This document shows positions 18,301-54,513 of a stretch of DNA of 64,000 bases, in pieces. This DNA is from Eledone cirrhosa (taxonomy: Eukaryota): contig OZ024743.1 in NCBI GenBank assembly GCA_964016885.1, positions 370,760,001-370,824,000 of the forward strand. Direction: 5' to 3'. A program made the translations under genes and the position numbers. The notes under the pieces are model-generated. The model was given only the letters and a program-made list of their open reading frames with translations, searched no databases and was not told the DNA's origin. Positions within the stretch are counted from its first letter, which is position 1, and each line of letters opens with the position of its first letter.

Positions 18301-21300
18301 CCTACACATCACACCACAGTACCCTTCACACCACACCACTGTACCCTACACACCACACCACTGTACCTTACACACCAGACCACTGTACCTACACATCACA
18401 CCACTGTACACTTCACACCACACCACAGTACCCTACACACCGCACTACAGTACCCTACACACCACACCACTGTACCCTACACACCACACTACAGTACCCT
18501 ACACATCACACCACAGTACCCTATACACCACACCACAGTACCTACACACCACCACAGTACCCTACACACCAGACCACTGTACCTACACACCACACCACAG
18601 TACCCTACACACCACAGTACCTACACACCACACCACAGTACCCTTCACACCACACCACTGTACCCTATACACCACACCACAGTACCCTATATACCACACC
18701 ACAGTACCCTACACACCACACTACAGTACCCTACACACCACACCACTGTACCCTACACACCACACCACTACCCTACACGCCACACCACTGTAACCTACAC
18801 ACCACAGTACCCTACACACCACGCCACACCACTGTACCCTACACACCACACCACTGTACCCTACACAACACACCACTGTACCCTACACACCACACCACTG
18901 TACCCTAGACACCACACCACAGTACCCTACACACCACGCCACACCACTGTACCCTACACACCACACCACTGTACCCTACACAACACACCACTGTACCCTA
19001 CACACCACACCACTGTACCCTACACACCACAGTACCCTACACACCACACCACTGTACCCTTCACACTACACCACAGTACTCTACACACCACAGTACCCTA
19101 CACACCACACCACGGTACCCTTCACACCACACCACAGTACTCTACACACCACAGTACCCTACACACCACACCACAGTACCCTACACACCACACCACTGTA
19201 CCCTTCACACCACACCTCAGTACTCTACACACCACACCACAGTACCCTACACACACCACTGTACCCTTCACACCACACCACAGTACCCTACACACCACAC
19301 CACTGTACCCTACACACCACACCACAGTACCCTACACACCACACCACAGTACTCTACACACCACACCACAGTACTCTACACACCACACAACTGTACCCTT
19401 CATACCACACCACAGTACTCTACATACCACACCACTGTACCCTTCACACCACACCACAGTACCCTACACACCACACCACAGTACTCTACACACCACACCA
19501 CAGTACTCTACACACCACACCACAGTACTCTACACACCACACCACAGTACTCTACACACCACACCACTGTACCCTTCACACCACACCACAGTACCCTACA
19601 CACCACACCACAGTACTCTACACACCACACCACAGTACTCTACACACCACACCACAGTACTCTACACACCACACCACTGTACCCTTCACACCACACCACA
19701 GTACCCTTCACACCAGACCACAGTACTCTACACACCACACCACAGTACCCTACACACCACACCACTGTACCCTACACAACACACCACTGTACCCTACAAA
19801 CCAGACCACTGTACCCTACACACCACCACAGTACCCTACACACCACACCACAGTACCCTACACACCACACCACTGTACCCTTCCCACCAGACCACTGTAC
19901 TCTACACACCACACCACAGTACCCTTCACACCAGACCACTGTACCCTACACACCACACTACAGTACCCTACACACCACACCACAGTACCCTACACACCAC
20001 ACCACAGTACCCTTCACACCAGACCACTGTACTCTACACACCACACCACAGTACCCTTCACACCAGACCACTGTACCCTACACACCACACCACAGTACCC
20101 TACACACCACACCACAGTACCCTTCACACCAGACCACTGTACCCTACACACCACACTACAGTACCCTACACACCACACCACAGTACCCTACACACCACAC
20201 CACAGTACCCTTCACACCAGACCACTGTACCTACACACCACACTACAGTTCCCTACACACCACTCCACTGTACCCTACACACCACACCACTGTACCCTAC
20301 ACAACACACCACTCTACCCTACACACCACACCACACCACAGTACCTACACACCACACCACAGTACCCTACACACCACACCACTGTACGCTACACACCACA
20401 CCACAGTACCTTTCACACCAGACCACTTACCCTACACACCACACCACAGTACCCTACACACCACACCACTGTACCCTACACACCACACCACAGTACCCTA
20501 TATACCACACCACAGTACCCTACACACCACACCACAGTACCCTTCACACCAGACCACTGTACTCTACACACCACACCACAGTACCCTTCACACCAGACCA
20601 CTGTACCCTACACACCACACCACAGTACCCTACACACCACACCACAGTACCCTTCACACCAGACCACTGTACCCTACACACCACACTACAGTACCCTACA
20701 CACCACACCACAGTACCCTACACACCACACCACAGTACCCTTCACACCAGACCACTGTACCTACACACCACACTACAGTTCCCTACACACCACTCCACTG
20801 TACCCTACACACCACACCACTGTACCCTACACAACACACCACTCTACCCTACACACCACACCACACCACAGTACCTACACACCACACCACAGTACCCTAC
20901 ACACCACACCACTGTACGCTACACACCACACCACAGTACCTTTCACACCAGACCACTTACCCTACACACCACACCACAGTACCCTACACACCACACCACA
21001 GTACCCTACACACCACCCCACTGTACCCTACACACCACACCACAGTACCCTATATACCACACCACAGTACCCTACACACCACACTACAGTACCCTACACA
21101 CCACACCACTGTACCCTACACACCACACCACAGTACCCTTCACACCAGACCACTGTACCCTACACACCACACCACAGTACCCTATATACCACACCACAGT
21201 ACCCTACACACCACACCACTGTACCCTACACACCACACCACTACCCTACACACCACACGACTGTACCCTACACACCACACCACAGTACCCTACACACCAC

Positions 21301-24300
21301 ACCACTGTACCCTACACACCACACCACTGTACCCTACACAACACACCACTGTACCCTACACACCACCACTGTACCCTACACACCACACCACTGTACCCTA
21401 TATACCACGCCACTGTACCCTTCACACCACACCACTGTACGCTACACAACACACCACTGTACCCTACACACCACCACTGTACCCTACACACCACACCACA
21501 GTACCCTACACACCACACCACACCACTGTACCCTACACACCACACCATACCACTGTACCCTACACACCACACCACTGTACCCTACACAACACACCACTGT
21601 ACCCTACACACCACCACTGTACCCTACACACCACACCACAGTACGCTACACACCACACCACACCACTGTACCCTACACACCACACCACACCACTGTACCC
21701 TTCACACCACACCACAGTACTCTACACACCACACCACAGTACCCTACACACCACACCACAGTACCCTTCCCACCACACCACAGTATCCTTCACACCAGAC
21801 CACTGTACCCTATATACCACGCCACTGTACCCTACAAACCAGACCACTGTACCCTACAAACCTGACCACTGTACCCTACACACCACACCACAGTACTCTA
21901 CACACCACAGTACCCTTCACACCACACCACTGTACCCTACACACCACACCACAGTACCCTACACACCACAGTACCCTTCACACCAGACCACTGTACCTAC
22001 ACACCACACCACAGTACCCTATATACCACACCACAGTACCCTTCACACCAGACCACAGTACCCACTACACCACAGTACCCTTCACACCAGACCACTGTAC
22101 CCTTCACACCACACCACAGTACCCTACACACCACACCACTGTACCCTACACACCATACCACTACCCTACACACCACACCACTGTACCCTACACACCACAC
22201 CACAGTACCCTACACACCACACCACTGTATCCTACACACCACACCACTGTACCTTACACACCACCCCACAGTACCCTACACACCACACCACTGTACCCTT
22301 CACACCACACCACAGTACCCTACACACCACACCACTGTACCCTACACACCACACCACTACCTTACACACCACCCCACAGTACCCTACACACCACACCACT
22401 GTACCTTCACACCACACCACAGTACTCTACACACCACCCCACAGTACCCTACACACCACACCACTGTACCCTTCACACCACACCACTGTACCCTACACAC
22501 CACACCACAGTACCCTACACACCACACCACTGTACCCTACACACCACACTACAGTACCCACCACACCACAGTACCCTTCACACCAGACCACTGTACCCTA
22601 TATACCACGCCACAGTACCCTACCCACCACACCACAGTACCCTACACACCAGACCACTGTACCCTACACACCACACCACAGTACCCTTCACACCAGACCA
22701 CTGTACCCTACACACCACACTACAGTACCCTACACACCACACCACAGTACCCACCACACCACTGTACCCTACACACCACACCACAGTACCCACCACACCA
22801 CAGTACCCTTCACACCAGACCACTGTACCCTATATACCACGCCACTGTACCCTACAAACCAGACCACTGTACCCTACAAACCAGACCACTGTACCCTACA
22901 CACCACACCACTGTACCCTACACACCACACCACAGTACCCTACACACCACACCACTGTACCCTACACACCAGACCACTGTACCCTACACACCACACCACA
23001 GTACCCTACACGCCACACCATAGTACCCTACACACCACACCACTGTACCCTACACACCAGACCACTGTACCCTATACACCACACCACAGTACCCTACACA
23101 CCACACCACAGTACCCTACACACCACACCACTGTACCCTACACACCACACCACTGTACCCTTCCCACCACACCACAGTATCCTTCACACCAGACCACTGT
23201 ACCCTACAAATCAGACCACAGTACCCTACACACCACACCACAGTACCCTACACACCACACCACTGTACCCTACACACCACACCACAGTACCTTCACACCA
23301 CACCACAGTACTCTACACACCACACCACAGTACCCTACACACCACACCACAGTACCCTTCACACCAGACCACTGTACCCTACACACCACACTACAGTACC
23401 CTACACACCACACCACAGTACCCTACACACCACACCACAGTACCCACCACACCACCCTTCACACCACACCACAGTACCCTATATACCACGCCACTGTACC
23501 CTACAAACCAGACCACTGTACCCTACAAACCAGACCACTGTACCCTACACACCACACCACAGTACCCTACACACCACACCACAGTACCCTACACACCACA
23601 CCACTGTACCCTACACAACACACCACTGTACCTTCACACCACACCACAGTACTCTACACACCACACCACAGTACCCTTCACACCAGACCACAGTACCCTT
23701 CACACCAGACCACTGTACCCTACACACCACACTACAGTACCCTACACACCACACCACAGTACCCTACACACCACACCACAGTACCCTTCACACCAGACCA
23801 CTGTACCCTATATACCACGCCACTGTACCCTACAAACCAGACCACTGTACCCTACAAACCAGACCACTGTACCCTACACACCACACCACAGTACCCTACA
23901 CACCACACCACTGTACCCTTCCCACCACACCACAGTACCCTTCACACCAGACCACTGTACTCTACACACCACACCACAGTACTCTTCACACCACACCACA
24001 GTACCCTACACACCACACCACACCACAGTACCCTATATACCACACCACTGTACCCTTCACACCACACCACAGTACCCTACACACCACACCACAGTACCCT
24101 ACACACCACACCACTGTACCCTACACACCACACTACAGTACCCTACACACCACACCACAGTACCCTACACACCACACCACTGTACCCTACACACCACACC
24201 ACTGTACCCTACACACCACACTACAGTACCCTACACACCACACCACAGTACCCTACACACCACACCACTCTACCCTACACACCACACCACTGTACCCTAC

Positions 24301-24392
24301 ACACCACACCACAGTACCCTACACACCACACCACTGTACCCTACACACCACACTACAGTACCCTACACACCACACCACAGTACCCTACACAC
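3380..24392. repeat. About 19-kb intronic minisatellite, 22-bp consensus CAGTACCCTACACACCACACCA (interrupted at 3747-5810)
   Basis: Directly visible tandem array with variants CTGTAC, CTCTA, CCTTCA, CAGAC, CAGTGC and 17-bp short units. Roughly 850-900 units, estimated from length. Confidence 0.99.
3747..5810 (-). mobile_element. hAT (Buster/Charlie-type) DNA transposon with disrupted transposase
   Basis: ORF pieces give a BED finger (CLLC..LKRHLDTNH), QVDETTD, TTDGAAAMTG, HCMIHR, RWLS and YLCEKGFS, with several frameshifts and stops. TIR-like CAGTGGTCGCCAAACT at 3747, preceded by CCCTACAC (nnnTAnnn). Other TIR absent. Confidence 0.93.
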
Positions 24393-24430
24393 CCAAAATA
24401 GTGCAAAAGTAAGTAAAGAATGTTACTAAC

Positions 24431-24865: not shown

Positions 24866-25159
24866 CTACAATAGATACAATAAAATAAAATATGAAATTT
24901 CTCTAAAGTTTAATTTTAACCCTTTCATGACTGCATCTGTAATGAAATACACTAAATTTAAATTAATCAAAGAAGAATTTGGAGTGATTTACTAAAATTA
25001 TTAATTATTTCATTACTATGGGTTTTATATAAAACTATGTTGGAAGATTTTAATTTATATAGGAACATTAAAGTGTTGATATAAAATATCTCAAACACAG
25101 GTTTGGCTTGATTTTTTCCAACCAACTTCTGATTTATTTTATTATTATTTTATTATTAT

Positions 25160-25352
25160 GGCGGTGAATTGGCAGTATCGGTAGAGGGTTGGACAACATG
25201 CTTTCTAGCATAGTTATGTCCCTTTACGGTCTGAGTTCAAATCCCACCGAGGTTAACTTTGCCTTTCATCCTTACGAGGTCGATAAAATAAAGTACCAGT
25301 AATACACTAGGATAATTGCTGGCCTTGTGCCAAAAGTAGAAACAATTATTAT
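25160..25352 (+). mobile_element. tRNA-derived SINE (family A)
   Basis: A-box-like TGGCAGTATCGG, B-box GAGTTCAAATCC, core GCCTTTCATCCTTACGAGGTCGATAAAATAAAGTACCAG and (ATT)n tail. Many copies in the window. Confidence 0.88.
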
Positions 25353-26269
25353 TTTATTATTATCTTTTAAATTATATTTTATATGATGCATTTTGTAAAT
25401 AATTATTTCTACTTTTGGCACAAGGCCAGCAATTACCCAGTACATTACTGGTACTTTATTTTATCGACCCGATGCATTTTGTAAATAATTGTTTCTACTT
25501 TAGGCACAAGGCCAGTAATTACCCAGTGCATTACTGGTACTTTATTTTGTAAATGCATTTTGTAAATAATATAATGTAATTAGTTTTCAATGCCTTAGTT
25601 ACTGGTTCACTGATTTTAAATCAATTTGTTATTCTATATTGTTCAAAACAAAGTAGACATGAAATTTAATTTCCTGCTAAAGTGAATATGCTGATGAAAG
25701 AGAAAATTTAAAAAAATTGTGTAATGAATAATTATGCTAAATGCCGGAAAAAAAAAGGGGGGGGGGTAGTAGAGAGGATTCTTCAGTCACATCAAGGACA
25801 AGATAACCTTTTTAATGCTGGTACCATGATAAAATATATTCAGCACATTTTGCAAAGAGTCTCCAGCAATATAAACCATACCAGAATAGAATGTATTTGA
25901 GAAATATGTGGTTCTCCAGCCGGTCTAGGTGGACAGTAGCTCTAATTAAGTAATGACTTGGTCTGTACCAACCCATACAACTCATGCCAGCATGGAAAAT
26001 GGACTTAAAAAGATGATGATAATAAACTGTTAGTGGTGATCCCCAATAACTAAATACACTGATCATGTTAGGTTATTGTTTGGTTGAAGTACTACAGACA
26101 AAGAGATTCAGAACTTCATTTTATATGATACATCATTTATATCATATATCATATCAATAAAATCATTATTGCTTATAGCTTTCTAACAGTCCATTCTCTG
26201 TATTTCTAACAGTGAGAGTGACAAGAAAGTGTCTGTAACACGGGAGAATAAATACTTTTGGTTTAAAGT

Positions 26270-26691: not shown

Positions 26692-26818
26692 CATTTCCAG
26701 TAACCGTATATGGTCTTCAAGGGAGCTGCTGTGTTCTTTAGCTGTTGCCAATGTATCCATTATTTCTTCTCTAGGATGCACACCAGCATCAAAGCGGTTG
26801 TACATTCCTTTCCAAAAT
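26692..26818 (-). CDS. MTMR6: MTMR6/7/8-like exon (start of coiled coil)
   Basis: (R)FWKGMYNRFDAGVHPREEIMDTLATAKEHSSSLEDHIRLLEM. TAG acceptor, GTAAGT donor, 127 nt. Confidence 0.93.
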
Positions 26819-27064
26819 CTATGGAAGAAGCACATTAGATTTGTCTTTATTCAAATATTGACATTTGGACAATGTAGTATGCTCTAACATTTTTGCAATA
26901 GTATTACTATTATAATGTACAATATTATATTGAAAACATGAATCACTTTTGTATTTATTGAACACAATGTTCAATGATGGGAGTGTCAGGAAAGGCAAAA
27001 AGGTGATTAAATAAGAATACTATCATATTTACTATTATAAGTTATTATTATTATCATCCTCATA

Positions 27065-27253
27065 AGGGTGGTGGATTGGCATTATCGGTAGAGGGTCAGA
27101 CGCTATGCTTTGCAGCATGGTCCTTTATGATCTGAGTTCAAATCCCGCCGAGGTTAACTTTGCCTTTCATCCTTACGGGGTCGATAAAATAAAGTACCAG
27201 TAATACACTGGGTAATTGCTGGCCTTGTGCCTAACGTAGAAACAATTATTATT
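27065..27253 (+). mobile_element. tRNA-derived SINE (family A)
   Basis: Full-length homolog of 25160-25352. Confidence 0.88.
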
Positions 27254-27254
27254 T

Positions 27255-27735
27255 GATGGTGTTGTTTCTATTGTATTGAGAGTACTCTTTGTAAAACGAG
27301 GGTGGTGCCTAGTAATGTTATTGTTTGTAAGCTGTGTATATTTGTAGGTCCAAGCCTTTGGTTATGTATATGTCTGTGTTTCTTTTATCATTCCTAGAGA
27401 ACCTATTATTAAAGTTATTGTTTCTGTCTTCATCATCCACATTTGGTTTGTTTCTATTTCAAGATCTTTATATTTAGATAGTTTCTATTTCCTTGGTAGA
27501 AATATTGTTATCTGTGGGGATTGATACATCAATTAGAAGATATTTTTTTCTTTGAAGTCTTTCACTATAGTATCTGATTGGTTAGTTTTGATCTCCCTAT
27601 ATGTGAGTATTGGCATATCCCAGAGAATGGTTGCTTTGTCATTCTCTTAATCATTTTCTGGTGTGTGTCAGTACATATTTTGTCTGTTGGCATAATTTCC
27701 AGTGTATGTAAGTTTTCTTGTGCATTCAACTGGTT
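27255..27735 (-). mobile_element. R4/Dong-like non-LTR element, restriction-like endonuclease remnant
   Basis: Manual translation gives ENDKATILWDMPILT..YLLIDVSIPTDNNISTKE..YKDLEIE..W..IIGSLG (PD-D type RLE), disrupted. Confidence 0.75.
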
Positions 27736-28362
27736 TGAGAGCTTGGTTCTTCATCTCATAAGGATTTTCCTATCTCTGGGAATAAGATTTTTGTGTCTGT
27801 TGGCCTTTTTCTCCAGGACAAACTTTTGGCATATAGTGTGTATCGTTGTCATGACGTGTTGAAATTGTGTGTTGGTGTCTTGTGCTCCATATTTGCTTCC
27901 GGATTTCTCTCTTGGTCTTTTTCCAGTTAGCCTTGTAGAAGTTAAGGCTGGATAACATCCCGGTGCTTCTTGATGGTTGTGTCTCTGTTGGTTCTCTCGG
28001 ACCACATATCATTACTTCTACTAAGTTATGATCCGAGAAAATTGTTGGTGTCACCTTTACATTGTGGATGAGCACTTCATTGTTTGCAAAACAGAGGTCC
28101 AGGACATTTTCACCTCTTGTTGGGAGGAGTACTGCTTGTTCCATGAACAGCCTGTATGTGAGGGCCAGCAGGGACTCTGTCTGTCTCTGTTCTAATGACG
28201 TCATTCCAGGGAGGATGTGGCCCTCAGGCCATTTGACCTTTGGCAAGTTGAAGTCTCCCAGCAGTAGAATGTTGAGACCCTGGTTCAGTTTGTCAAGGAC
28301 CTCTTCTATCCTACTGAGGCTATCCTCAAATTTACCCTCATGACTGGGGGCATCGGGTGGCT
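27736..28362 (-). mobile_element. CR1/Jockey-group LINE fragment (APE endonuclease)
   Basis: PPDAP..ILLLGDFNLPKVKW..PTRGENVLDLCF..IFSDHNLVEV. Confidence 0.85.
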
Positions 28363-28599
28363 AATAATATATAATTTTCTCTATATATTATCTGCGTAAA
28401 TCATTCATCATATTTAACGGTTAGCAAACAAGATTGGCGTTATCTTTTCCTTTTCAATCGTGCAAACATAAACATTATAATATATGTATGATAAACTATA
28501 TAACTTTGCTAAATTAACAATATTCTGAAAACATTTTCAATGTTGGAACAAAATATTTGAATTTACAAATTGTTCTCCTCTTAAAACTTGAACTACATG

Positions 28600-30373
28600 T
28601 TTTTTTTATGTAAAATGACGAGATATTTATAAACCATGCACAATATTATAATAAGGCTCTTTCTGAATCTGGTTATGAACAATCCATTTACTACATACCT
28701 AAATGCCATAACACAGCAACTCACCATAATAAACTTAACGCTAGAACTAGAAATACCTTAGCATAGAGCCAGTTCGCCGGAATTTTAGCAGTAACAGCAC
28801 CAACACAGGGAAGTTAAATGGTGGCAGCGGCCTGCTCCCCACTCCAAGTAGCAAACTAAAAATCAACCCTAGAATAGGAATGAGAAATGGGATGACAAAT
28901 AACAAATCCCCAGGTAATAATAACCCTAGGAAGGCCCCTACCAACTCCACTAGAACCCCTAGAAGGAATAGACCTAGAAATATCACCTGGCTTAACCCCC
29001 CATTCTCATCTAATGTAGCCACTAATATCCCTAACCGCTTCTTCTCTATCCTATCTAAACATTTCCCCCCCAACCATAGATATTACAAACTCTTTAATAA
29101 AAATAACATTAAAATCTCATTCTCCACAACACCTAACCTAGCTAGCCACATCGCATTCAGTAACCATCATAAGCTAAGACACTATAACTCCCACACCGCG
29201 GTACCACCACCCCTATCAAATACACCACGCCACTACACCAATAATTACTCTAGTAGCACACCTCCCCCATCTAATCCTTCTAGCACTGACCAACCGCTTA
29301 GGTTAAACTACCCTACTCTCACTAACCGCAGAAGCAACTGCAACTGCCGTTACCCTAATGCATGCCCATTAAATGGACACTGCCTGACACCCAATATATT
29401 TTATAGGTGCACGGTTAAAACTGCTTCGAATACCAGCTCTTATATTGGGTCTACCTCTAACCCTTTTAAGGTATGCTATAACGCACACTCTTTTTCTTTC
29501 CAAGACCCTAGCAACAGATGTTCGACAACTCTAGCTAGGCTCATTAAAAACCTTAAATTAAGCAACATTAAACACTCACTAAAATGGGATATCGTAGCTA
29601 GGGCCCAACCGTTCAATGGACAAAGAAAATCCTGTGATCTCTGTATTACTGAAGCATATTACATAACTCTATCACGACATCTACCGATTAACGATAGAAC
29701 GGAGGTAACTATTAGCTGTCAACATCGAAGGGCTAATTCCTTCGCCAATAGAATATTTGACCCAACATAGTCATCTAGCCCCATTTTCACTTGTAGCTAA
29801 TAAGTTAAATAGCTATAACTAACTTAGATAATTATAAGTTACCTCTCTTACATTGTCTCTCAATTAAAAAATTTAAAAATTAGCACTTAACTATAAACTA
29901 CCCACAATTTCAAATCTCTTGAGGAGTTACTTCCCCTGAAACCACCCTCTAATTAGTAAGGTAAATATGTCCTTTGGCGGCCATCTTGTTACCCATAGGC
30001 AGATCTCACACAATGCAGCCTCGACAGATGAATACTGCTTGATTATGGCTGACAACTGATACAACCAGGACACCATAGTGAAACACCAATATATGGAACA
30101 CTACATTATGTAACATTCTCTCCTTATTTTAATTTATATTCCTTTGAAGTTCCGATGAGCTGCTCTGTTTTTAAATATGTTAATTATTTTCAACTGAACA
30201 GATCAATAATGATATATAGTCATCTGATCCAGAAATATTATATGGAGTAGCGAAACAATTGTAAACGGACATTATTATTATTCTCTATATTCCTTACATC
30301 AAACTAAAATATGTTGACAATCTTTTAATAATGTCTTCCTTGTGAAATTTGTGGTCTTGTTTTGCTTAACTAA

Positions 30374-30380
<7 letters not shown>
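28600..30380 (+). mobile_element. Penelope-like element, 5'-truncated: GIY-YIG endonuclease ORF (28880-29770) and 3' terminal repeat region
   Basis: YYNKALSESGY thumb remnant; RNITWLNPPFS, CNCRYPNACPLNGHC, IFY..YIGST, CDLCITEAYYI. Hammerhead-like motif downstream; ends in (TA)n. Confidence 0.88.
30149..30266 (+). ncRNA. Type I hammerhead-like motif (degenerate core)
   Basis: GTT-CCGATGA-GCTGCTCTGT...ATGGAGTAGC-GAAA-CAATTG-TA-AAC. 10-bp stem II, palindromic stem III, core U4>C, 3-bp stem I. Confidence 0.6.
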
Positions 30381-30439
<59 letters not shown>

Positions 30440-30443
<4 letters not shown>

Positions 30444-31414
30444 GTGGCATAGGTATGCATCTGTATATATATGTTGGTAGATATACTAATTCTTTATAAT
30501 TATCTCCAAATTATTTTATTGAGCAAAAATTTGCCAAAACTACTACTATGGTTCATAGTAATAGTCAGGCTACTGTCTTATTAGCACCCCACTCCTCACG
30601 TGATTGATTCTTTTGAATTTGCCACCGACCAAGTAGGCAGTGATTTTTTCAATGTCCTGGAATTTAGTCCTCGCTTGCTTTTTTCCATCCACTGAATTAT
30701 TTTTGTATAAGTTCCCTGTGTCCACGCATTGCCTGGGAACTTAGCTGAGAATAGACTTCCTGAAGACGAAAGGATTTTCTCCATGTTGTTCCATTCGGAA
30801 ACCATGTTTATTCCCTTTCAGAAACTAATTAGTTGGAGTGAAATTTTAGTAAGTTAATTTTTATAATTTTCTTATTTTACGTCTTTCATATAATTGTTCT
30901 GCATTCCCGTGCATTGAACCACAAAGTTACTAAGACAAAACCTATATATTTGCTGGCATAGGTATGCATCTGTATATATATGTTGGTAGATATACTAATT
31001 CTTTATAATTATCTCCAAATTATTTTGTTGAGCAAAAATTTGCCAAAACTACTACGATGGTTCATAGTAATAGTCAGGCTACTGTCTTATTAGCACCCCA
31101 CTCCTCACTGATTAATCTCAATGTCACGTGATTGATTCTTTTGAATTTGCCACCGACCAAGTAGGCAGTGATTTTTTCAATGTCCTGGAATTTAGTCCTC
31201 GCTTGCTTTTTTCCATCCACTGAATTATTTTTGTATAAGTTCCCTGTGTCCACGCATTGCCTGGGAACTTAGCTGAGAATAGACTTCCTGATGACGAAAG
31301 GATTTTCTCCATGTTGTCCATTCGGAAACCATGTTTATTCCCTTTCAGAAAGTAATTAGTTGGAGTGAAATTTTAGTAAGTAAGTTAATTTTTATAATTT
31401 TCTTATTTTACATC

Positions 31415-31421
<7 letters not shown>
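30440..31421 (+). repeat. Two tandem ~0.5-kb direct repeats, each with a hammerhead-like core (pLTR/retrozyme-like)
   Basis: 30440-30892 is nearly identical to 30948-31421. CTGAAGA at 30760 and CTGATGA at 31288, each followed by CGAA..TTCG-GAAAC. Confidence 0.85.
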
Positions 31422-31461
<40 letters not shown>

Positions 31462-31519
31462 TACAAATATACATATATATATATGTACGTATATACATAT
31501 ATATATACATATATATATG

Positions 31520-33985
31520 TAAACCCAGTACATTGTCTGTTGGAGATTGAAAAGTGCTTCACTAAAATTTGTTGGAATGCGAACATAAATAACAACAATA
31601 CAAATAACAATAATAATAATAACGAAAGTAGTAACATAAACAATAACTTTGACTATAGAAATAACAGCTATAATAATAATAGTCATAACAATAACAAAAG
31701 CAGGAGAGATGGAAATAATAATAATAATGGAAATGGCAGAAGCAGCAACGTTAATGATAGGCAGAACAACAATAACAACCAAAACAAAAACAAGAAACGT
31801 AACAATACAGGTAACAACCATAATGGTAGATATAACACTAACAACAACGATAACAATGGAGAGAACAACAATACTGTTAACAATCGTAACAATAATAATA
31901 ATGTTAACAGTAGGAACAACAACAGCCATAATGGCAATAATAGTAGTACACCCAACTATAATGATAGATTTAATGACAACCCCTTAGAGAATCTGTTCTT
32001 CAACCCAGCTGACAAAACATACAAGATGAACAAAATTTATCCCACTATATCATCTTTTAATAAAAGAGTTTGTATACAACAATAAATAGATGACCAAACA
32101 GAGGCACAGTTTACCATAGCTAGAAATAAACTTAGACAGGTAGTAGAACAATATACTAAGGGATAAAACAGACCAGAAATTCAACAACTTGGATGAAAAC
32201 CTGTAGAAGGCCTACTTAGCCTTAAGCAGCGCACAAGGGATGGTGAGGTAGTTTATCTACCCACAGATAAATCTGGTAGGATGTCAATAGGCAGCATGCC
32301 GAACTATATCAAAGCTATGCAACTCCACATCATCAACACGAGCGAAACAACAAAATAAACACATGAGGAGAGAGAAAAGATCCTCAACGCTTACATGATG
32401 ATGTTGACCGACATCCTAAAGCCAAGTAGACACACAGCCAACAACTTCTGAGCATCTAACAACAACATACCACCCTTATATGGACTCCGCAAAGACCATA
32501 AAACAACCAACAACCCTATGACAGGACCAACAACAAGACCTATATGCGGAGCCAATATTGCTAGCAACTACAGGATCTCCTACTTCCTCTCTATGATTAT
32601 ACGCCCTATAATTAAGATGTTTCCAGATATATGTGACAGCACAGAGGACCTCCTCAGTAGAGTCAATGAATGCAACAACAACAAAAACTTAACTAACTGC
32701 ATAATAGGCAGTATGGATGTAGTATCTCTGTACCCATCCATTAACATTGATTTTGCTGTGAAACAATGTGTGGAAATAATCAGTGAGAGTGAAGTGGAAT
32801 TCTGCGACGTTGACACAGATGAACTGGGCCTCCTACTTGGACTTACTTATGACACCGAATACCTAGATAATCTTGACCTTAGCTGATTCTGCCCTAGTAG
32901 ACCTATAAGAAGTAGACCCCCAACCATAACCTCAATGGCTAAAAAGACTCCTATAGGAAGATGGACCAAAGCCATACAGACACTCAAAAACAACGATCAT
33001 GTGAGAAAAATGGTCACACATGCAATAGGGGCTAGTATTAAAACTACCTTAAAGGGCCATATGTTTAAATTTAATGAAAAGATCTACACCCAGAATGAGG
33101 GAGCAGCCATTGGCATCAGCATAGCTGGCAATGTTGCCAATCTATTTATGGTATAGTGGGAGAGGAGACTCAGAGAACTCCTTGAAGAGAATGCCATAGC
33201 CTTCGTCATGTACTCTCGTTATGTAGACGATATTAATATAGTAATAAGAACACCCTGCAAGAGAGTACTAATAAATATGAATTAGAAAATAGCACAATAG
33301 AGAGCATCCAGCGGATAGCTAACTCCATACACCAGAGTATAACTGTAACTGTTGACTACCCTTCCAAACACTCTAACAATAGACTACCAGTATTAGACAC
33401 GGAACTCTGGATAAATACTATAGACGAGAGGGCCCAAATCTCCACTCACATTATGCTAAACTCATGGCCTCCAAATAACTGATATTCAAAAACTCAGCAA
33501 TGTCCAATAGTGCTAAGCTTAATATTCTGATTGAAGACTTGGTAAGACTGATGTGCGACCCAACTGAAGTGGAAAGTCACATCCAACACTTCATCAATCG
33601 CATGCAGTTCTCTGGCTACAACCAAAGAGACAGAATCAGAGTATACAAAAGAGCCACGGAAAAATATAAGACCCTCATAGAAATGGACATGAAAGGAATT
33701 TGCCCATTATACAGGAGCAAATCATGGAATAGCTTAGATAGGACTAAACATAAGATAAGGAAAACCACTTCATGGTACGGCAACCAGAGATACCAAAGTG
33801 TCATGTTCGTGGATGCTACCCCTGGAGGGAAATTAGCTAAGCAATGTAGAAAGGCCCTAAGAAAGACCCATCTAAAGATTGAAGTGGTAGAAAAGCCAGG
33901 AACTACCATAAAATACCTGATTAGCAAGACATACCCTTTTAAGAAAACCCACTGTACGAATAAGAAATGTGTTATATGTAGAATA
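31520..33985 (+). mobile_element. Penelope-like element reverse transcriptase pseudogene
   Basis: Asn-rich N-terminus, then TDKSGRM, LYGLRKDHK, RPICGA, GSMDVVSLYPSI, GAAIGISIAG, YSRYVDD, LPVLD, MQFSGY. Many stops; truncated by (TA)n at the Cys linker. Confidence 0.92.
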
Positions 33986-34119
33986 CATATATATATACAT
34001 ATACTTATATATATATACACATTATATGTATACACACACACACATATATATATATACACACATATATATAGCAAAAATATGAAGAATAACATGGTCAGCT
34101 GTACAATAGGGTTTATTTA

Positions 34120-34232
34120 CAGTATTAACAATTGTTTCTTTAGTCTGGTGAGTCTAAAAGTCACTGAAAGTTAGAAGTTACGTCAGTCAACCTTAATTAC
34201 AGTCGATCCCCGACCAAATCATCAGAATACTG
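34120..34232 (-). ncRNA. Type I hammerhead ribozyme with long loop II
   Basis: Minus strand: CAGTATT-CTGATGA-TTTGGTC-(66 nt)-GACTAAA-GAAA-CAATTG-TT-AATACTG. Perfect 7-bp stem I, 7-bp stem II, intact core. Confidence 0.85.
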
Positions 34233-35108
34233 ATTTGTACATAACACAGGGCACTGGTATTTATAGATACATGGGAGAATAACATAAATGAAAACAACAA
34301 TAATAATCATAAGAAGATTAATGATAATAATAGTAGTAGTGGTAGTAGTAATAGTTGTAATAGTGAGTGGATAGAGGCGTAAAATAGTAATGACGGTGTA
34401 ATAAAAATAACATGGAAAAAGTGGGGGTTTGAAGAGATAGTGTGATAAGCAAGATGCTGGTCAGTCATAAAATGATGTATTGGCGCCATTCCAATATAGT
34501 GGGTTATATTCATGAATTGGCGGAATAAAGACTAAAAAATAAAAAATAAAGAATAAAAAATAAAAAGACAATGATAACAGATGGGTGATTAAGGTTGAGG
34601 TATTTTGAATGTTTTATCTTAATGGAGGTGAGGATTGATGGTAACGTTGTGTGAGAGGATGTGTCTATAAAGAGTTGACGGACTGCCGATTGATTTTATG
34701 TCCGATTGGTCAACTAACAATTAATTATAGTGGGGATGTGTAAAGTTGATCCGTTGGTGTCAGTGTAGTAGACATTCTAAATCCGGGTGGTTTGAATGGA
34801 TAGTGAGATTGCCGGATCGAATCATGTTTGTCATGGTTTGTAGTTAGAGAATTTAGTGGTGGCTTTGTGCCTACAGAAAATTGTTTGCTCGATCTTGCTA
34901 TTGAGCAGCATTTTGTTATATTGTAGAATACAATATACATATATATATATATTGTTATGCTTTGGGAGAGTCATGTTGCCAATAAGAAACACACGCACCA
35001 GTTGCTTTCACTCCAATTTATTATAAATTAAATTTATAAATTTAAGAATTTATAAATTTCCGGTTGGTTGGTTGGTTGGTTCCATAACCGGACGGTTGTT
35101 CATATATT

Positions 35109-35151
35109 GTCAAAGTTCTTTCGTCACACATTCTGTGACCTCTTCAGTGAC
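35109..35151 (-). ncRNA. Minimal type I hammerhead-like motif
   Basis: GTCA-CTGAAGA-G-GTCACA-GAATG-TGTGAC-GAAA-GAAC-TT-TGAC. Confidence 0.65.
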
Positions 35152-35860
35152 TGTGGATTCTTTTCTTTGTTTTCTGGTCTTTCTACTATCTTAATATTAA
35201 ATTTACATAAACTTAATATTAAGATAGTAGAAAGACCAGGTACCTCCATAAAAATACTTATTAGCAATACATACCCTTTTCAAAGACCTCCCTGTATAGA
35301 TAAGAAATGCATAATCTGTAAACTAAGCCCCCATATTAACTGTAAAACTAGAAATGTAGTATATAGCATAAAATGTATTGAAGGACAATGCAAAGATAAG
35401 AATATAGTGTACATAGGTGAGACAGCTCGTAACATAGGAGAACGGTTAAATGAACACTGGCGAGAACTTCAAGATAAAAAAGAATCATCAATACTCCACC
35501 AACATGCTAAAATAGAACATAAGGGTAAATTAGAGAACATAGAAATAAAAATAGAATCTACACACAGAAAAGACGCAATGTTTAGACAAATCACAGAGGC
35601 AATAAAGATAAATGAACTCCAACCAAAATTAAATAGAAAACATGAATGGAACAGCAACATCACAACTTACAATTAAGGACAAAATGAAAACACACACACA
35701 TAGAACAAACAACTAATTAGTAACATGTAAATAAACAAATAAAAACACACACAGACACCCGGATGTAACACATGCGCAAACTAAGCACACAACACACACA
35801 AAAACAAGATGGCGTAGGACAGAACAAAGGAGAGGCACAAAACAAAGAAAAGAATCCACA

Positions 35861-35903
35861 GTCACTGAAGAGGTCACAGAATGTGTGACGAAAGAACTTT
35901 GAA
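35861..35903 (+). ncRNA. Minimal type I hammerhead-like motif (inverted twin of 35109-35151)
   Basis: Same motif with one stem I mismatch (TGAA). Confidence 0.55.
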
Positions 35904-36720
35904 AATATATGAACAACCGTCCAGTTATGGAACCAACCAACCGGAAATTTATAATAAATTGGAGTGAAAGCGATTGGTGCGTGTGTCTCTTATTGGCAAC
36001 ATGACCCTCCCAAAGCATAACAGTATCGGTTTCAACACATGTTTTCAGATAAAGAATCTTGCTAAACAAATTCAGAAACAAAATATATATATATATATAT
36101 ACCGTCAACCATACACAATTAGGTATAAATGAAATTTATAAATTCTTTAATTTATAATAAATTGGAGTGAAAGCAACTGGTGCGTGTGTTTCTTATTGGC
36201 AACATGACCCTCCGTGTGTTGAAACCGATACTGTTATGCTTTGGGAGGGTCATGTTGCCAATAAGATACACACGCACCAATTGCTTTCACTCCAATTTAT
36301 TATAAATTAAATTTATAAATTAAAAAATTTATACCTAATTGTGTATGGTTGACGGTATATTTGGTCAGTTTCTGCATGCTGTTGAAATGTTGGGTAAATA
36401 CTCTATTGTGGTCAACTGCGGAGAGGCTGCTTTCGGTTATTTATCAAATATTTCTTCATAGGAGCCTTTATTCTTATAGCCTCGTCTAATTGATTTTTTA
36501 TATGGTTAATTATGCTAATTGGGAGAGGAAATAGTATATATTTTATCTAATAATTCTAAGGACATCATTTATTATATATATATATATACCCTTGCAAGCA
36601 GGGAAAAAGCGGACGTAAAATGAAATATATATATATATACTCATATATATATACACATATATATATACTCATATATACATACACATATATACATATATAT
36701 ATACATACATATATATATAC

Positions 36721-38282
36721 ATGGTGGCTGCCAACTCGTCTTCGAGTACGGCCACTACTTTATATCCATGTAGGAGAACCCCTACCGATGCGCTGAACGA
36801 GTGTGACTTTTTAGTCCAGCCAGCGACTTGAAAACTCTGGTACAAACACTACACTTGTGACAATTATTCACACATAGTGCTGGGCCCATGGTACCATGTG
36901 ACGACAAGTGCAGAGAGATCTCCAGATATAAAGCAATGCCTGTGCCGTGAAGCTTTTATAGTGAGCAAAGGCACTGCACAAGGCCAGTCCCACTCTCTTA
37001 ACCAAGATGATATTTACCAAAAAGAAGAACAAGTCAACATCATTGGATATCATCAGGGTTGCAGGTGTTATATCAGAGTTTTCTTTCTCCTAGAATTCTG
37101 CCTTGACAAAGGCTAAGGGGTCATCTCTCCCGGTGATTTTGGATGGCCATTGACTCTTAAGAGCTCCTTTGCCCTTTGACAGGTTTTGTTTTTAGTCCTG
37201 CAGGATGTCCAAAGTCACCCTCCTCACCAAGAAACCTTGGTGGGGTTGCCAGTTTAGTCGCCAACGACCCGACCATGAGACAGGTTGTACTGGGATACAT
37301 GTTACTAGTAGCACCAACTGGTGACCTGACATATATACATATATATATACATACATACATATATGATGGCTACCCCATCATTATCGAGTATGGCCCGATA
37401 TACCATTATTAATAATTATTAATTAATTCTATCGTGCAATGCCTGTGCGTGAAGATATTTTTGAAAGACTGTGCACTGAGCCAATCCCACTCTCTGAGCA
37501 ACAGTAGCTATAACCCGAAAAGAAGAAAAGATCAACATGATCGTTAACTACTGAGCCGCGGGGTTTATATCGAAGTTATCCCAGTTTCCTGAGTTGCCTT
37601 CTCCTAGAAGAATGCCCTAACAAAGCGTGCGGTACATATGTATATACATATTTACATACCTTTGGATGGCCATTGACTCTTATGAGTTCTTCCTCCCTTT
37701 GTCAGGTTTTGTTTTTGTCCTGCAGGGTGTCTAAAAGCACCCTCCTCACCAAGTAAACTTGGTGGGGTAGCCACTTTAGTCGCCGACGACCCGACCATGC
37801 GACAGGTTGTACTGGGTTACATGTTACCAGTAGCACTCAAGAGTGAGCTGACATATATACATACATACATATATATATATGGCTGCCAACTCGTTTTCGA
37901 GTACGGCCACTACTTTATATCCATGTAGGAGAACCCCTACCGATGCGCTGAACGAGTGTGACTTTTAAGTCCAGCCAGCGACTTGAAAACTCTGGTACAA
38001 ACACTATACTTATGACAATTATTGACACAGTGCAGGGCCCATGGTACCATGTGACGACAAGTGCAGAGAGATCTCCAGATATAAAGCAATGCCTGTGCCG
38101 TGAAGCTTTTATAGTGAGTAAAGGCAATGCACAAAGCCAGTCCCACTCTCTTAACCAAGATGATATTTACTAAAAAGAAGAACGAGTCAACATCATTGGA
38201 TACCATCAGGGCTGCAGGTGTTATATCAGAGTTTTCCTTCTCCTAGAATTCTGCCTTGACAAAGGCTAAGGGGTCATCTCTC
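36721..38282 (-). mobile_element. Three tandem short non-autonomous LINE-derived elements separated by microsatellite
   Basis: Copies at about 36721-37330, 37362-37855 (more diverged) and 37878-38282 (truncated). Remnant C2H2-like tail VCTRVFKSLAGLKSHTRSAHR* resembles RTE-family C-termini. Confidence 0.7.
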
Positions 38283-38573
38283 ATATACATATATACATAC
38301 ATATATATACATATATATATATATATACATATACACACACACATATATATACACATATATACATATACACACACACACATATATATACATATATATATAC
38401 ATATATACATATACACATATATATACATATATATATACATATATACATATACACATATATATACATATATATATATATACATATATACATATACATATAA
38501 AAACAAATAACGAAACGAAATTAAACTTCGTTTCGCTTGTAACTCACTTTTGTATGACTGACGCTTAAACAAT

Positions 38574-39040
38574 TAAGTTAAAGATGTACATCCATATATG
38601 TATACTGAAATACTAGTATGTATATGAATACACACACGTATACATATGTAGATGTACCAAGTTTTTTCATTGGTCACTTTACTGTGAGTGGCCAGCTATT
38701 CTGTATGTAAACGCAGACAAACCGGTTTTTAGAGTCATACTGGTTTTTGAGGAAACACCTTTCCTCTATTCTCCAGAAAGCCAGACAAGGAATATTGAAC
38801 TAGTTTCGTTGTTGTTACAACTCATCAGCAATATTTACCTATCTTCCGGCCTCTCTAGAGAATCGTAAAAGCACATATCGTTATATGCTTTTTCTATGAA
38901 AATTAGTAGTGGGCAGACTAACTTGCATAGAGTGTGAGTAAAGTGACCAGTGAAAAAACTTGGTACATCTACATATGTATACGTGTGTGTATTCATATAC
39001 ATACTAGTATTTCAGTATACATATATGGATCTTTAACTTA
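38574..39040. repeat. Fold-back element: ~105-bp inverted arms around a ~250-bp loop
   Basis: 38574-38683 is the near-perfect reverse complement of 38937-39040. Confidence 0.92.
38791..38835 (-). ncRNA. Minimal type I hammerhead ribozyme
   Basis: Minus strand: AATATTG-CTGATGA-GTTGT-AACA-ACAAC-GAAA-CTAG-TT-CAATATT. Perfect stems I and II, palindromic ACTAGT stem III. Confidence 0.9.
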
Positions 39041-40196
39041 ATCATATACATATATATATATATATATAAATTTACATATACACACATATATATATAGACA
39101 CACACACACATATTTATATACAGATATATATATACATATACACACATATATATATAAATTTACATATACACACATATATACACATACACACATACACATA
39201 TATATATAAATATATATATACACATATATATACATATATACAGGCATATATATATATACATACATACACACACACACACACATATATAGACATATATATA
39301 TATACATGCATATATACACACACACACACACACACACATATATACATAGGAAAATAGTCAGGACACCGATGGCTGAGCTCCAGCCGTTTCGACAGCTCAG
39401 CTGTCGGAGTCCTGACTCTTTTCCTAGTAGGTCTGCCAAAATGCTCAGGTGTCTACAATCACACACACACATACACACTCACACCCACACACATGCACAC
39501 TCATATACACATGCATATATATGAGTTGTCTGTGGGTCTGTCTTTTCTTCAGAAATTATTATGAACAGCCACAAAACCATATATATTATTATTTGCCATC
39601 TCACAGGTCATATATGTATAACAATTATTTTATTGTATGATGCAGCAATTGATCAAAATTCTATTGCTATATTTCCATATTCATATTAACAAATTTGGCC
39701 ATTTCCTCTTTCCCTGAAAGTGAGACTAAAGAAAGAAGAAAAGCAAAGAATTTAATGTCAAATTTTATGCGCATTGTGAAACACAATAAAGACAAACTGA
39801 AAAAAAGGGGCGTCAAGAGAGAGAGGAACAGATATATCAAGAGAGAGAAGCAAGGAAAGGGAGGTAGCAAGGGTAAAAGAAGAAAGAAGTGGCTTATTTA
39901 AAATTTGAACTTAAATGTTAACTAAATATAAAACCAATTATTCATTATTCAATATATATCTGCTGTTATCCATGCATATCTCTGGAACAAACTGAACAAG
40001 ATATTTACAAAAAACAGTCATAGGGATTATGGATAATAGAACAAAAGGATGAAGCTTGTCTTGATGTTTGCAATGCTAACTCTTGCTCTGGTAAGGAAAA
40101 TGGTCTTAAAACGCTTGTTGTTGCTAGTAACTTTGGTAATAATTTGTTGCCTTCTACAGGTAAAATAAGATAAAAAGAAGTATGACATCAACAAAC

Positions 40197-40337
40197 CTGA
40201 AACTTTGAGGACAAGTATTTGGGAAAAGTAACCCACTTGCTTTTGTTGCCATGTTATCCTTCTGGAAAATAGGGTTGATAAAGTCATTCATGTATTTATG
40301 AATGTAACCCCAGAGGGAATAGGTTCTTTCTGACAAC
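40197..40337 (-). CDS. MTMR6: MTMR6/7/8-like exon
   Basis: (R)LSERTYSLWGYIHKYMNDFINPIFQKDNMATKASGLLFPNTCPQSF. CAG acceptor, GTTTGT donor, 141 nt, phase 2/2. Confidence 0.92.
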
Positions 40338-41232
40338 CTGGATATAAAGCAAAGAAAAAACCCAATGATTTTATAGATATAACATTTTGATTGATTGGAG
40401 ATATTGGTGATGAAAGGAATGTTTTACAAGAGTTTTACAGTCAATAAGACAGAGGACATGGTTAGGTATTGATTTTAACAAAAAAAACTATATTATGTTT
40501 TAAACGAACATGTGTTTAGAAATGGTGAGTGGAATTTTATTTAGATTATTTTCCTTTAGTCAACATATTCAATAAAGATTCAAACTTTCCCATTAATTTC
40601 ATTATCATTACTTTTATTTTTAGGGTATATTGAATATCTTATACTAAGTTCAAACCTCACTACAGATGATTTTACTTATCAATAATATGAGTGCTAGAGA
40701 GAACTCATAAAGGAGCTTCTATGTAGCCACTTGATCTCTTAGAAATAGCAACCAAATCTTCCTCAAATTATACTTCTGTACAATCATTATAATATAGATT
40801 TATCAACATTTATTAACATTTATTAACATTTATTTACATGTTTTCATTGTTATTGTTGATATATTTTACTTAATGAAACCTCTACCATCATGTTTTTTGT
40901 TTCTTTTTTTTTGTATTTCACCTTTGTACTCTCCCCACTCACCCCAATATCTGAGACCTTGTGGCCAATAAAAGAAATCATCATCATCATTATTATATCA
41001 CTAATTAATAATGAAGAAATTATGTTGTTGCTTAAACTTCTAGAAATAGAAGCCAAATCCCACCCTACTGTCCTAAAAATGGAAAGACATTGAATAATGA
41101 TATATTGTCCCTAAAGAAAACAAAAGTAAACCACAGAATGGTTATGACTAGAACATCTTTAGTTATAGGATTTATGTCTAAATTGAGAATATCAACATCA
41201 ACAACAACATTGGGGCATTTATGTTTCCATAC

Positions 41233-46760: not shown

Positions 46761-47235
46761 CTAACAAAGAGAAAATATATATATGAAAATATAAATATAT
46801 ATATATATACAGCAATAGATTACAGATGTTTAATTTAAGATGCAATAGATTACAGATTCTTTAATTCGGCTGTAAAACCAACATGATTGTCATGTGTAAC
46901 AATAGTTTAAGAAAACAGAAAAAAAAAAAAAAATTTTCACTCTACCTTCCTAAACTTTCAGGATGAAATACAGTTAGAAATGGTAGTCAGCCCTAATCAA
47001 AAATATCTTTTACTGCTTTCAGTCATCGGAGAAAAATGGAGAGGAGGAAAACTCTACCCTCATGGCTGGATGGTATATTATAGTTATGCGCTGCAGACTA
47101 GATGGCAAACACATTGCTGCAGTGAACAGCCGCCAATATGTGCTGCATCAGCCATTCCACATGTGGAGGCAAGAGAGTGATGAAAACCATCACCTTAGAC
47201 AGCAACTCTAAATTTTTAAGATCAACAAGAATTAG

Positions 47236-48509: not shown

Positions 48510-49546
48510 TTAAATCTAACTTTTACTGTACTTTTTCTTGGAGAGCATCCAAAAAGAAACATTTTGATACCTCATTTGTGAAATAAGAAAATTTGAATCT
48601 TGCCTAATTAGGCCTAAATGAATAATTAGCCATATTTGAAATGTCATATCTTTGAAACTGAGGTGATAATCATCTTCAAATTACACAAATTAATTGTGTC
48701 CATGGGATAGCAGCTGCCTATTGTTTCAGGTTCTTGAAAATAAAACTTTTTTGTGGCAATTCTTAAAATATTTATGTAAAGCCTATTTTGTTGCATGTAA
48801 CAAGCAGTTGATTTCATGATGCAAGTTTTTCATGTCTTTTCAGACTTAACTAAATCCAATAGAACAAACCACAAGGACTTGAGTTTTGGCACATTTGTGG
48901 TAGGTACTGAACTAAATAAATTATGAGAATTTGGAACATGATACCATTTCAATAAAATTTTAATGAACAATTAAAAATGACTATAAACTATTAAATTAGT
49001 GATCAATGGTCGTTGCAAGCTTTTATGGCATTTTCAGACATGGCTATATTGCGATCTATTATCTGTAGGGGGCTCAGTTTTTACACTGGTATGGGGTATA
49101 AAAACTGAATCCTCTCTGTAAGTTTGGAGCTTTACAATATATTTAATAGGTGTCCCTGTAGATCTCCATGGAAGAGGCAACACACAGTTTACTTTCATAT
49201 CAAAATTCATTTTTTCTGTGGACAATTATATATCATTTGAAAGTTCTGGATATGAACTTTCTTCTCGTATACTTTTGATCAAAATCCGACACTTGCATAT
49301 CATGCTAGGTTGCGTATTCAATACGGGCATTACCAAAGCTTAAAAGTTAACCAAAGTGTTTCAAACAGTCCTGTTACAGTGTTCATGATAATTACCAAAA
49401 CATTATTCAATTTTATTTAATTATTAATGTAACTTTCTCCGAATTGCATGTAGACCTAGATTAAAAAACAAACAAAATATGAAAACTAATTCCTGGAAGC
49501 AAACCCATTAGTAGAAGAGAGAGAAAAAATAAAAACCAATCGGCAC

Positions 49547-54375: not shown

Positions 54376-54513
54376 TGTTTCTACTTTTGGCACAAGGCCA
54401 GCAATTATCCCAGTGTATTACTGGTACTTTATTTTATCGACCCCGTAAGGATGAAAGGCAAAGTTAACCTCAGCGGGATTTGAACTCAAACCATAAAGGG
54501 CCGTAACTCTTTG
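54376..54513 (-). mobile_element. 5'-truncated SINE family A with 20-bp target-site duplication
   Basis: Flanked by CTTTCACCAGTCAAAATAAT at 54356-54375 and 54514-54533. Confidence 0.9.

Follow-up and report, generated by a model that had tools for sequence, protein, structure and literature searches.

Hammerhead motifs clustered in one intron of an Eledone cirrhosa MTMR6/7/8-like gene as probable retroelement debris

Seven hammerhead ribozyme motifs are clustered in a single intron of an MTMR6/7/8-like gene of Eledone cirrhosa. We analyzed them in a window of 64,000 nucleotides (nt) of contig OZ024743.1 (assembly GCA_964016885.1, positions 370,760,001 to 370,824,000), and window coordinates are used throughout. 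The gene lies on the minus strand and the intron extends from 26819 to 40196. The cluster is best read as the debris of retroelements at an insertion hot spot, with ribozymes that would be nearly inactive in the pre-mRNA, and we assign this reading a probability of about 85%. Five insertions, bounded by (AT)n tracts, hold all seven motifs, and 13 of the 14 (TA)6+ runs in the ten introns of the gene in the window fall in the same intron. This coincidence explains the clustering without selection. Motifs 1, 5 and 6 are linked to what is left of open reading frames (ORFs) from Penelope-like elements (PLEs). A PLE origin of motif 4 is suggested by its sequence, and motifs 2 and 3, which have no ORF, are presumed to share it. 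The near-inactivity of the motifs in the pre-mRNA is what folding models suggest.

PLEs bear a type I hammerhead close to the 3' end and are copied from that end, usually with 5' truncation and often with an inverted copy; (TA)n is the target of several of their clades. According to this reading, the cluster arose in this way. Five insertions into a (TA)n-rich intron would have left the seven motifs: Hydra-type ends (motifs 1 and 4), a Neptune/Nematis-type end with its inversion (motifs 5 and 6), a tandem pair (motifs 2 and 3) and an ORF-less unit (motif 7), the last being probably a non-LTR retrozyme moved by PLE proteins. The ribozymes would serve the elements' own RNA through dimer cleavage in tandem transcripts. 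Single intronic copies would show little cleavage, and splicing would probably cope with an occasional cut.

Seven motifs in five insertions

The insertions and motifs between 28751 and 39046 are as follows.

28751-30375, plus strand: element A, a 5'-truncated PLE assigned to the Hydra clade (ORF end at 28751-29770, then the 3' untranslated region (UTR), ending at (AT)32)
30149-30266, plus strand: motif 1 (core start 30152), decayed, with a CCGAUGA core, a 93-nt helix II and a 3-bp helix I; antisense to the host
30434-31423, plus strand: element B, a tandem ORF-less pair of units of about 500 nt between (AT)n tracts, 93.8% identical
30760-30809, plus strand: motif 2 (core start 30760), with core, helix II and a near-palindrome, no helix I at the core; antisense to the host
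31288-31336, plus strand: motif 3 (core start 31288), duplicate of motif 2 with the same defect; antisense to the host
31978-33982, plus strand: broken PLE reverse transcriptase (RT) ORF with DKSG, YVDD and a CX4CxxC linker; no hammerhead
34075-34930, minus strand: element C, 3' end of a second PLE (last ORF codons, N..CxH, and 3' UTR), with (AT)n on both sides
34120-34232, minus strand: motif 4 (core start 34225), with an intact core, a 7-bp helix I and an 80-nt helix II starting with U-A; sense to the host
34943-36078, plus strand: element D, a 5'-truncated Neptune/Nematis-type PLE (GIY-YIG ORF end at 35197-35676, then 3' UTR)
35109-35151, minus strand: motif 5 (core start 35147), a minimal hammerhead in the inverted copy, with an extra G after the core and a 4-bp helix I; sense to the host
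35861-35903, plus strand: motif 6 (core start 35865), element D's own 3' copy of motif 5; antisense to the host
38500-38940, minus strand: motif-7 unit (element E), ORF-less, about 441 nt of a probable 466, ending in an (AT)n tract
38775-38846, minus strand: motif 7 (core start 38828), a type I hammerhead of canonical shape; sense to the host
38937-39046, plus strand: inverted arm, a 110-nt copy of 38574-38683 at the 5' side of the motif-7 unit, 93% complementary, ending in (AT)n

The initial annotation had listed seven motifs with cores and pairing stems in five sequence contexts, and all were recovered, as a core with helix II, at their positions and strands. A loose descriptor (C[C/U]GANGA, helix II of at least 4 bp, GAAA[C/G]) found seven matches in the host intron, exactly motifs 1-7, and none in the other nine of the ten introns; this is far above chance, as the mean in 500 dinucleotide shuffles was 0.034. 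Both this descriptor and a strict type I descriptor were composed after the motifs had been seen, but the null of the loose one is so low that tuning cannot account for seven motifs. Only motifs 4, 5 and 7 (34225, 35147 and 38828, minus strand) pass the strict descriptor, for which the shuffle mean was 0.01 (n=300) and for which nothing passed among 26,222 other bases. Thus the naming of all seven as hammerheads is borne out for the core and helix II (7/7) and fails under the strict descriptor for four. A relaxed scan allowing one core mismatch added no motif, its one match in the intron being motif 7 against a null mean of 0.46.

The CUGANGA and GAAA core with an NUH site is present in motifs 2-7, and motif 1 has U4 changed to C. 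All three helices surround the core, with helix I left open-ended, in three of the seven (motifs 4, 5 and 7). Helix I is 3 bp long in motifs 1 and 6 and absent at the core in motifs 2 and 3, and four of the seven motifs are decayed. The motifs are not independent, since those at 30760 and 31288 belong to a tandem duplicate (94%) and those at 35147 and 35865 to inverted copies. Self-pairing of helix III is complete in motifs 1 and 4 (8/8) and in motif 7 (6/6), and partial in motifs 2 and 3 (6/8) and in motifs 5 and 6 (4/6). The background offered with the initial annotation, that PLE pseudo-LTRs and retrozymes carry type I hammerheads with palindromic helix III that act as dimers, is right and describes these motifs. 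In the Rfam scan that it had called for, run on the whole window and on 34060-36060, only motif 7 was found as a hammerhead (HH9, below the gathering score) and the other six were unmatched. MicroRNA matches from Rfam also scored below gathering and were set aside as microsatellites and inverted repeats.

NUU sites are cleaved more slowly than GUC sites. A U at position 17 was considered as a sign of decay and ruled out, because NUU occurs in the published PLE alignment, including its mollusc rows (PMC4209133), and GUU is listed as cleavable.

Element A ends its ORF with a linker and a GIY-YIG-type domain bearing CxCX5C, CxxC and CxH, and this ORF end is 33-38% identical over about 250 amino acids to four PLE-like proteins (P0121-P0124). 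CxCX5C and the terminal CxH are found in all four, RWK and DKT in two (P0121 and P0124). The CxCX5C linker, the CxxC and CxH around a conserved E and N, and the lack of CCHH agree with Hydra-clade features given by Craig et al. 2021 (PMC8557442), as do (TA)n and the 3' hammerhead; the assignment is made from linker and endonuclease features, since the RT of element A lies outside the remains in the window. The stop codon is 380 nt upstream of motif 1, the helix III of which is the palindrome ACAAUUGU. Element C shares this palindrome and the long helix II with motif 1 and, to judge from its sequence, is probably a Hydra-clade end as well, although the match of 34911-34843 to the end of the element A ORF is weak (35% over 23 amino acids, E 0.54). 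In motif 4, helix III has 2 bp and an AAUU loop, and a GUU site lies at 34127. Both elements differ from the described clade in that only 3' remains are present and in the unusual length of helix II, 93 nt in motif 1 and 80 nt in motif 4. The supplement of PMC8557442 lists Hydra-1_Obim from O. bimaculoides with a (TA)n preference, to which the likeness is one of described features.

Element D shows the marks of a Neptune/Nematis-type PLE. CX4CxxC is present in the ORFs at 31978 and 35197, CCHH in the latter (Pfam GIY-YIG, E 1.1e-5) and DKSG in the RT; the assignment, made by motifs, is to the Neptune/Nematis type as a whole. The related broken RT ORF at 31978-33982, just upstream of element D, ends at an (AT)n tract before the endonuclease; it is 56-66% identical to O. 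vulgaris P0134 and matches Pfam RVT_1 with E 9.5e-6, below the curated cut-off. Element D carries an inverted copy of its own 3' end at its 5' side (34949-35176), with 107-nt arms that are 97% complementary, and its stop codon is 190 nt upstream of motif 6. Motif 5, with a predicted CUU cleavage site at 35113, is the inverted counterpart of motif 6, whose helix I is cut to 3 bp by one change. A PLE ORF on the same strand thus lies 5' of the hammerhead for motifs 1 and 6 (and for 5 as the inverted copy), and motifs 2, 3 and 7 are without one.

Motifs 5 and 6 resemble the minimal hammerhead ribozyme (min-HHR) of metazoan PLEs (Cervera and De la Pena 2014, PMC4209133) in the 4-bp helix I and 6-bp helix II, the extra nucleotide after the core, the tiny helix III, the NUU site, the position 3' of a GIY-YIG ORF and the pairing on opposite strands about 700 bp apart; opposite-strand pairs at 100-700 bp are described there. 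Unlike the min-HHR, motif 5 has a 15.1-16.1 segment that is 4/6 self-complementary. Cephalopod examples did not appear in the sections of that paper at our disposal. PLE hallmarks described in the literature include inverted copies at the 5' side, one-sided tails and a (TA)n target, and insertion of a PLE beside earlier copies has been reported (PMC6765202). At 36097-36360 the terminal part of element D occurs once more as an inverted pair, without ribozyme, and this is the source of the microRNA-like Rfam matches.

The tandem units of element B are moderately structured (fold z -2.9 to -4.2) and may represent a second, decayed retrozyme-like family. Helix II of motifs 2 and 3 begins with C-G, and there are 0 contiguous helix I pairs at the core; alternative registers gave no helix I at the core of either motif.

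Taken as a whole the cluster is ordinary: in many animals PLEs carry hammerheads by the thousand, and for Octopus a Hydra family has been listed before.

The ORF-less unit carrying motif 7

The part of some value is the unit carrying motif 7. As far as its sequence allows us to judge, this unit probably belongs to a family of non-LTR retrozymes, of which it would be a solo copy. It was inserted with PLE hallmarks, namely a 5' inversion, a one-sided tail (the last 74 nt are present on one side only) and a (TA)n target. It is short, ORF-less and self-paired, has a GC content below 45% and contains a canonical type I hammerhead. Motif 7 has a 7-bp helix I with a bulged extension, a helix II closed by G-C with a 6-nt loop, a palindromic ACUAGU helix III and a predicted GUU site at 38798. 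The fold z of the 438-nt unit is -9.6 (0/100 shuffles as stable; GC 35%). With 25 shuffles each, z was -10.1 for the ribozyme strand and -5.3 for the other strand, compared with -0.2 to +1.9 for three PLE 3' UTRs and +0.8 and +1.5 for a control intron stretch. These properties are shared with animal non-LTR retrozymes (Cervera and De la Pena 2020, PMC7229834), which are ORF-less, self-paired and carry canonical type I hammerheads, and the 1-bp helix III under a palindromic tetraloop is that of axolotl HHR_Amex1 (PMC7229834). Animal retrozymes as described in PMC7229834 and by Li et al. 2026 (bioRxiv 10.64898/2026.07.22.740005) also occur, like this unit, in many variants, and as tandem repeats or circles, a form that the unit may have too. 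Unlike them, the unit would be about 466 nt long against the 170-400 nt given in PMC7229834, stands solo and combines a PLE-type 5' inversion with a (TA)n target.

Searches of sequencing runs indicate a repeat of many variants. Four of the 24 runs listed were searched with the stretch 38684-39036. Run X2 gave 653 contigs with loose ends at the inversion junction (281 at 99% identity or above, 196 at 95-99%, 136 at 90-95% and 40 below 90%); the summed depth of these contigs is not a copy number. A closed loop in a contig corresponds to a tandem array or a circle. In run X16 a single contig of 496 nt was found, with the arm repeated every 466 nt; at word size 31 a closed loop should be 466+30 nt long, which equals these 496 nt. 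Run X4 gave one contig of 416 nt starting at the same inversion junction. The single contigs of X4 and X16 have a depth of about 5 (4.5 in X16) and may be carry-over. The kind of these runs is not on record, the size of 466 nt depends on the one X16 contig, and the unit is solo in the window. Run X21, consisting of raw Hi-C reads with a label like that of the best-matching run, gave 0 reads in 1,938 million letters and is no test of presence. Of the 24 rows listed (17 studies), 20 contain part of the motif-7 stretch, 15 of them at least half of the words, and no RNA run was among the matches listed. The count of 16 organisms with the stretch was dropped as a sign of conservation because of the possible carry-over, and an exact 29-nt search of metagenome contigs gave 0 matches. 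None of six listed substitution sites falls in 38773-38839, a number too small to count.

The retrozyme assignment has two competitors. The unit might instead derive from an autonomous PLE, as its pseudo-LTR or its truncated 3' end, as for motifs 1 and 4-6. This would alter one step of the explanation of the cluster only, and we regard it as the less likely but a serious alternative. It would account readily for the 110-nt inversion, the one-sided tail and the (TA)n target, it gains from the slender basis of the 466-nt loop (one contig at depth 4.5 from a run whose kind is not on record), and 466 nt exceeds the size reported for animal retrozymes. However, no ORF remnant was seen in the unit, its hammerhead is canonical rather than minimal, its z of about -10 is strand-biased and far from the values of the three PLE 3' UTRs, and the period and length of the X16 contig and the start of the X4 contig at the same junction fit a repeating unit. 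The other competitor, that motif 7 is a co-opted and conserved intronic ribozyme like the amniote HH9 and HH10, is scarcely credible. The best Rfam match is indeed HH9 (RF02275), across the full model (positions 1-77 of 77), and motif 7 resembles HH9 in type I topology, in the bulged extension of helix I and in its sense orientation in an intron. The score of 37.7 bits nevertheless falls short of the gathering score of 52, helix III is too short for a monomer, and the unit is bounded by microsatellites and an inversion. Whereas HH9 is single-copy and conserved, motif 7 is borne by a multi-variant repeat and apparently young, with 281 of 653 contigs at least 99% alike over ribozyme and flanks, as for a young insertion.

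If the unit is a retrozyme, the class would be extended to cephalopods. Our literature searches found no cephalopod retrozyme described, and the supplements of PMC7229834 and of bioRxiv 10.64898/2026.07.22.740005 might list one. In the sources at hand, the case for mobilization of animal retrozymes by PLEs has been built on their co-occurrence and on kinship of sequence. If the assignment is true, the (TA)n target, the one-sided tail and the inversion at the 5' side would be an insertion-level footprint of PLE proteins moving animal retrozymes.

Cleavage of the host transcript

The initial annotation had also proposed that the three minus-strand motifs, which do have the sense orientation of the pre-mRNA and are the same three that are intact, cut the nascent MTMR transcript in cis, truncating it or releasing RNAs of 3.7 kb and 1 kb that might circularize. 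We consider such host cleavage and large circles very unlikely. In its favor, all three sense motifs pass the strict descriptor, the fragment sizes are right (3685 and 986 nt), and RtcB is able to ligate the ends of cleaved retrozymes in vitro (PMC7229834). Both fragments, however, need motif 5. Its antisense partner, the copy with motif 6, is transcribed about 700 nt earlier, and once 850 nt of upstream pre-mRNA are included, motif 5 needs 68 kcal/mol to adopt the hammerhead fold, against 0.7-3.5 kcal/mol without the antisense arm (107 nt, 97% complementary). As this arm is made first, motif 5 would be masked and the 3685- and 986-nt circles are unlikely. The energies given here are ViennaRNA nearest-neighbour values without tertiary contacts or a known-active control, and they rank folds rather than measure them.

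Nor would the sense motifs find partners in cis. A helix III of 1-2 bp favors dimers, but no second copy of any sense motif is present in the transcript and the arms are not cross-compatible, five of the six cross pairings giving 0 helix I pairs and the sixth giving 3. Motif 4 could possibly act as a monomer through its 2-bp helix III plus tetraloop; its hammerhead fold costs 4.3 kcal/mol alone and 8-13.5 kcal/mol in context. The dimer energies of motifs 1 and 4 do not count the pairs in the interior of their long helix II, and we did not use them. In motif 7, helix III is one pair under a CUAG loop. Reports on related ribozymes point in the same direction: a single min-HHR showed no cleavage and dimers little, and axolotl monomers with helix III of the motif-7 and motif-4 types cut 6% and 22% per hour (PMC7229834). 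A hammerhead cut within an intron left splicing efficient, and only the faster hepatitis delta virus (HDV) ribozyme blocked it (PMC2995048, citing Dye 2006 and Fong 2009). In all ten clustered octopod proteins (O. bimaculoides, O. vulgaris, O. sinensis and Argonauta hians) the exon junction is crossed uninterrupted; none of these proteins is from the species of the window (96-98% identity at best), so this is no test of the locus. The proposed cutting of the nascent transcript and release of circles thus found no support.

It is also conceivable that motif 7 (or 4), silent alone, is completed by RNA of its own family into a double hammerhead, which would nick a fraction of the pre-mRNAs 1.4 kb after the 5' splice site. 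Such a leak in trans appears improbable, if less so than cutting in cis. The ACUAGU palindrome is perfect, the double hammerhead of motif 7 (-16.6 kcal/mol) is more stable than two monomers (-15.0) and comes close to the minimum for the dimer (-18.4), many family variants are present in run X2, and retrozyme RNAs are abundant in other animals (PMC7229834). On the other hand, the leak needs unfolded family RNA in the nucleus and self-pairing of the unit is very stable. In Xenopus, eight of nine retrozyme dimers were inactive in vitro (bioRxiv 10.64898/2026.07.22.740005), PMC11167929 reports no RNA-seq reads ending at the hammerhead site of an Anolis PLE, and hammerhead cuts in introns did not block splicing, as noted above. 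The strongest form of the idea is that motif 7 is a young solo copy from a cephalopod retrozyme family with an abundant 466-nt circle, marked by the inversion and (TA)n footprint of the PLE machinery, and that family RNA acting in trans triggers cleavage of the MTMR pre-mRNA, since helix III of motif 7 would form only in a dimer; this is highly doubtful. If true, all genes with an intronic copy in sense orientation would be tuned by the expression of retrozymes. The locus suits a test of trans switching of dimer-dependent intronic hammerheads.

Several points weigh against our reading of the cluster as nearly inactive debris. The three intact motifs are exactly the three sense motifs, and purifying selection predicts the reverse; this coincidence is weak, as there are five events and motifs 5 and 6 differ by one helix I base. 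Motif 7 has a canonical shape, and its helices I and II lie 2.4-3.4 kcal/mol from the ensemble in all five contexts, energies which, as stated, only rank folds. Retrozymes are under-represented in Xenopus introns, though 42-44% of copies are intronic (bioRxiv 10.64898/2026.07.22.740005), and this depletion suggests some cost. Coral and mussel retrozyme monomers cut at 0.8 and 0.1 per min (PMC7229834). When cutting before splicing was computed with human elongation and splicing times (PMC2995048), slow rates gave about 1-5% (about 1% at 6% per hour) and fast rates 50-100% of transcripts, so that the cleavage rate decides the outcome. Slow cleavage at 38798 or 34127 may occur.

Host gene and further repeats

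The host gene, its strand and the intron named in the initial annotation were confirmed by tblastn with the O. bimaculoides protein. The 3' part of the gene is in the window, with eleven exons placed from 62667 to 3093, one of which shares 99% identity with P0001, an MTMR8-like protein of Octopus bimaculoides. The best octopod proteins reach 96-98% identity at the two exons on either side of the intron, and none is identical.

40197-40339, minus strand: exon upstream of the intron, 96% identical by tblastn to residues about 449-496 of the O. bimaculoides protein, with a GT donor at 40196
26819-40196, minus strand: host intron of 13,378 nt, beginning with GT and ending with AG, with bounds from the tblastn exons
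26692-26818, minus strand: exon downstream of the intron, residues about 496-538 (tblastn, 98% identity), with an AG acceptor ending at 26819

Other repeats lie in the same intron. On the minus strand at 39345-39440 an 80-nt palindromic element with a fold z of -7.9 stands at the end of an (AT)n tract. Hammerhead-like arms can be drawn around a GAAAC in it, and it has no CUGANGA; it is possibly an eighth, dead remnant or a plain hairpin. In the region 36725-38282, duplicated units of about 400-600 nt, 83-95% alike, interleave between (AT)n runs. They have no hammerhead core, a minus-strand ORF there ends in a weak C2H2 finger (Pfam E 0.017), and the units look like the 3' ends of another retroelement. 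At 27300-28360, on the minus strand, an AP-endonuclease fragment (Pfam Exo_endo_phos_2, E 5e-11) adjoins a frameshifted stretch, which we take to resemble the restriction-like endonuclease of non-LTR elements.

Elsewhere in the gene, an 18-kb imperfect tandem array with an extreme C/A skew occupies about 6000-24400, in the intron that splits the FYVE-coding region; on the strand antisense to the gene it has frames that run for as many as 2125 codons without a stop. A 9.5-kb intron holds broken LINE-type reverse transcriptase copies at 47100-53050 (RVT_1 E 6.8e-31 for 50761-51402); it contains a single (TA)6+ run and lacks hammerhead motifs. A short repeat, presumably an octopus SINE, is dispersed in copies 74-93% alike at 25139-25357, 27045-27261, 54360-54502, 55416-55591 and 61592-61746.

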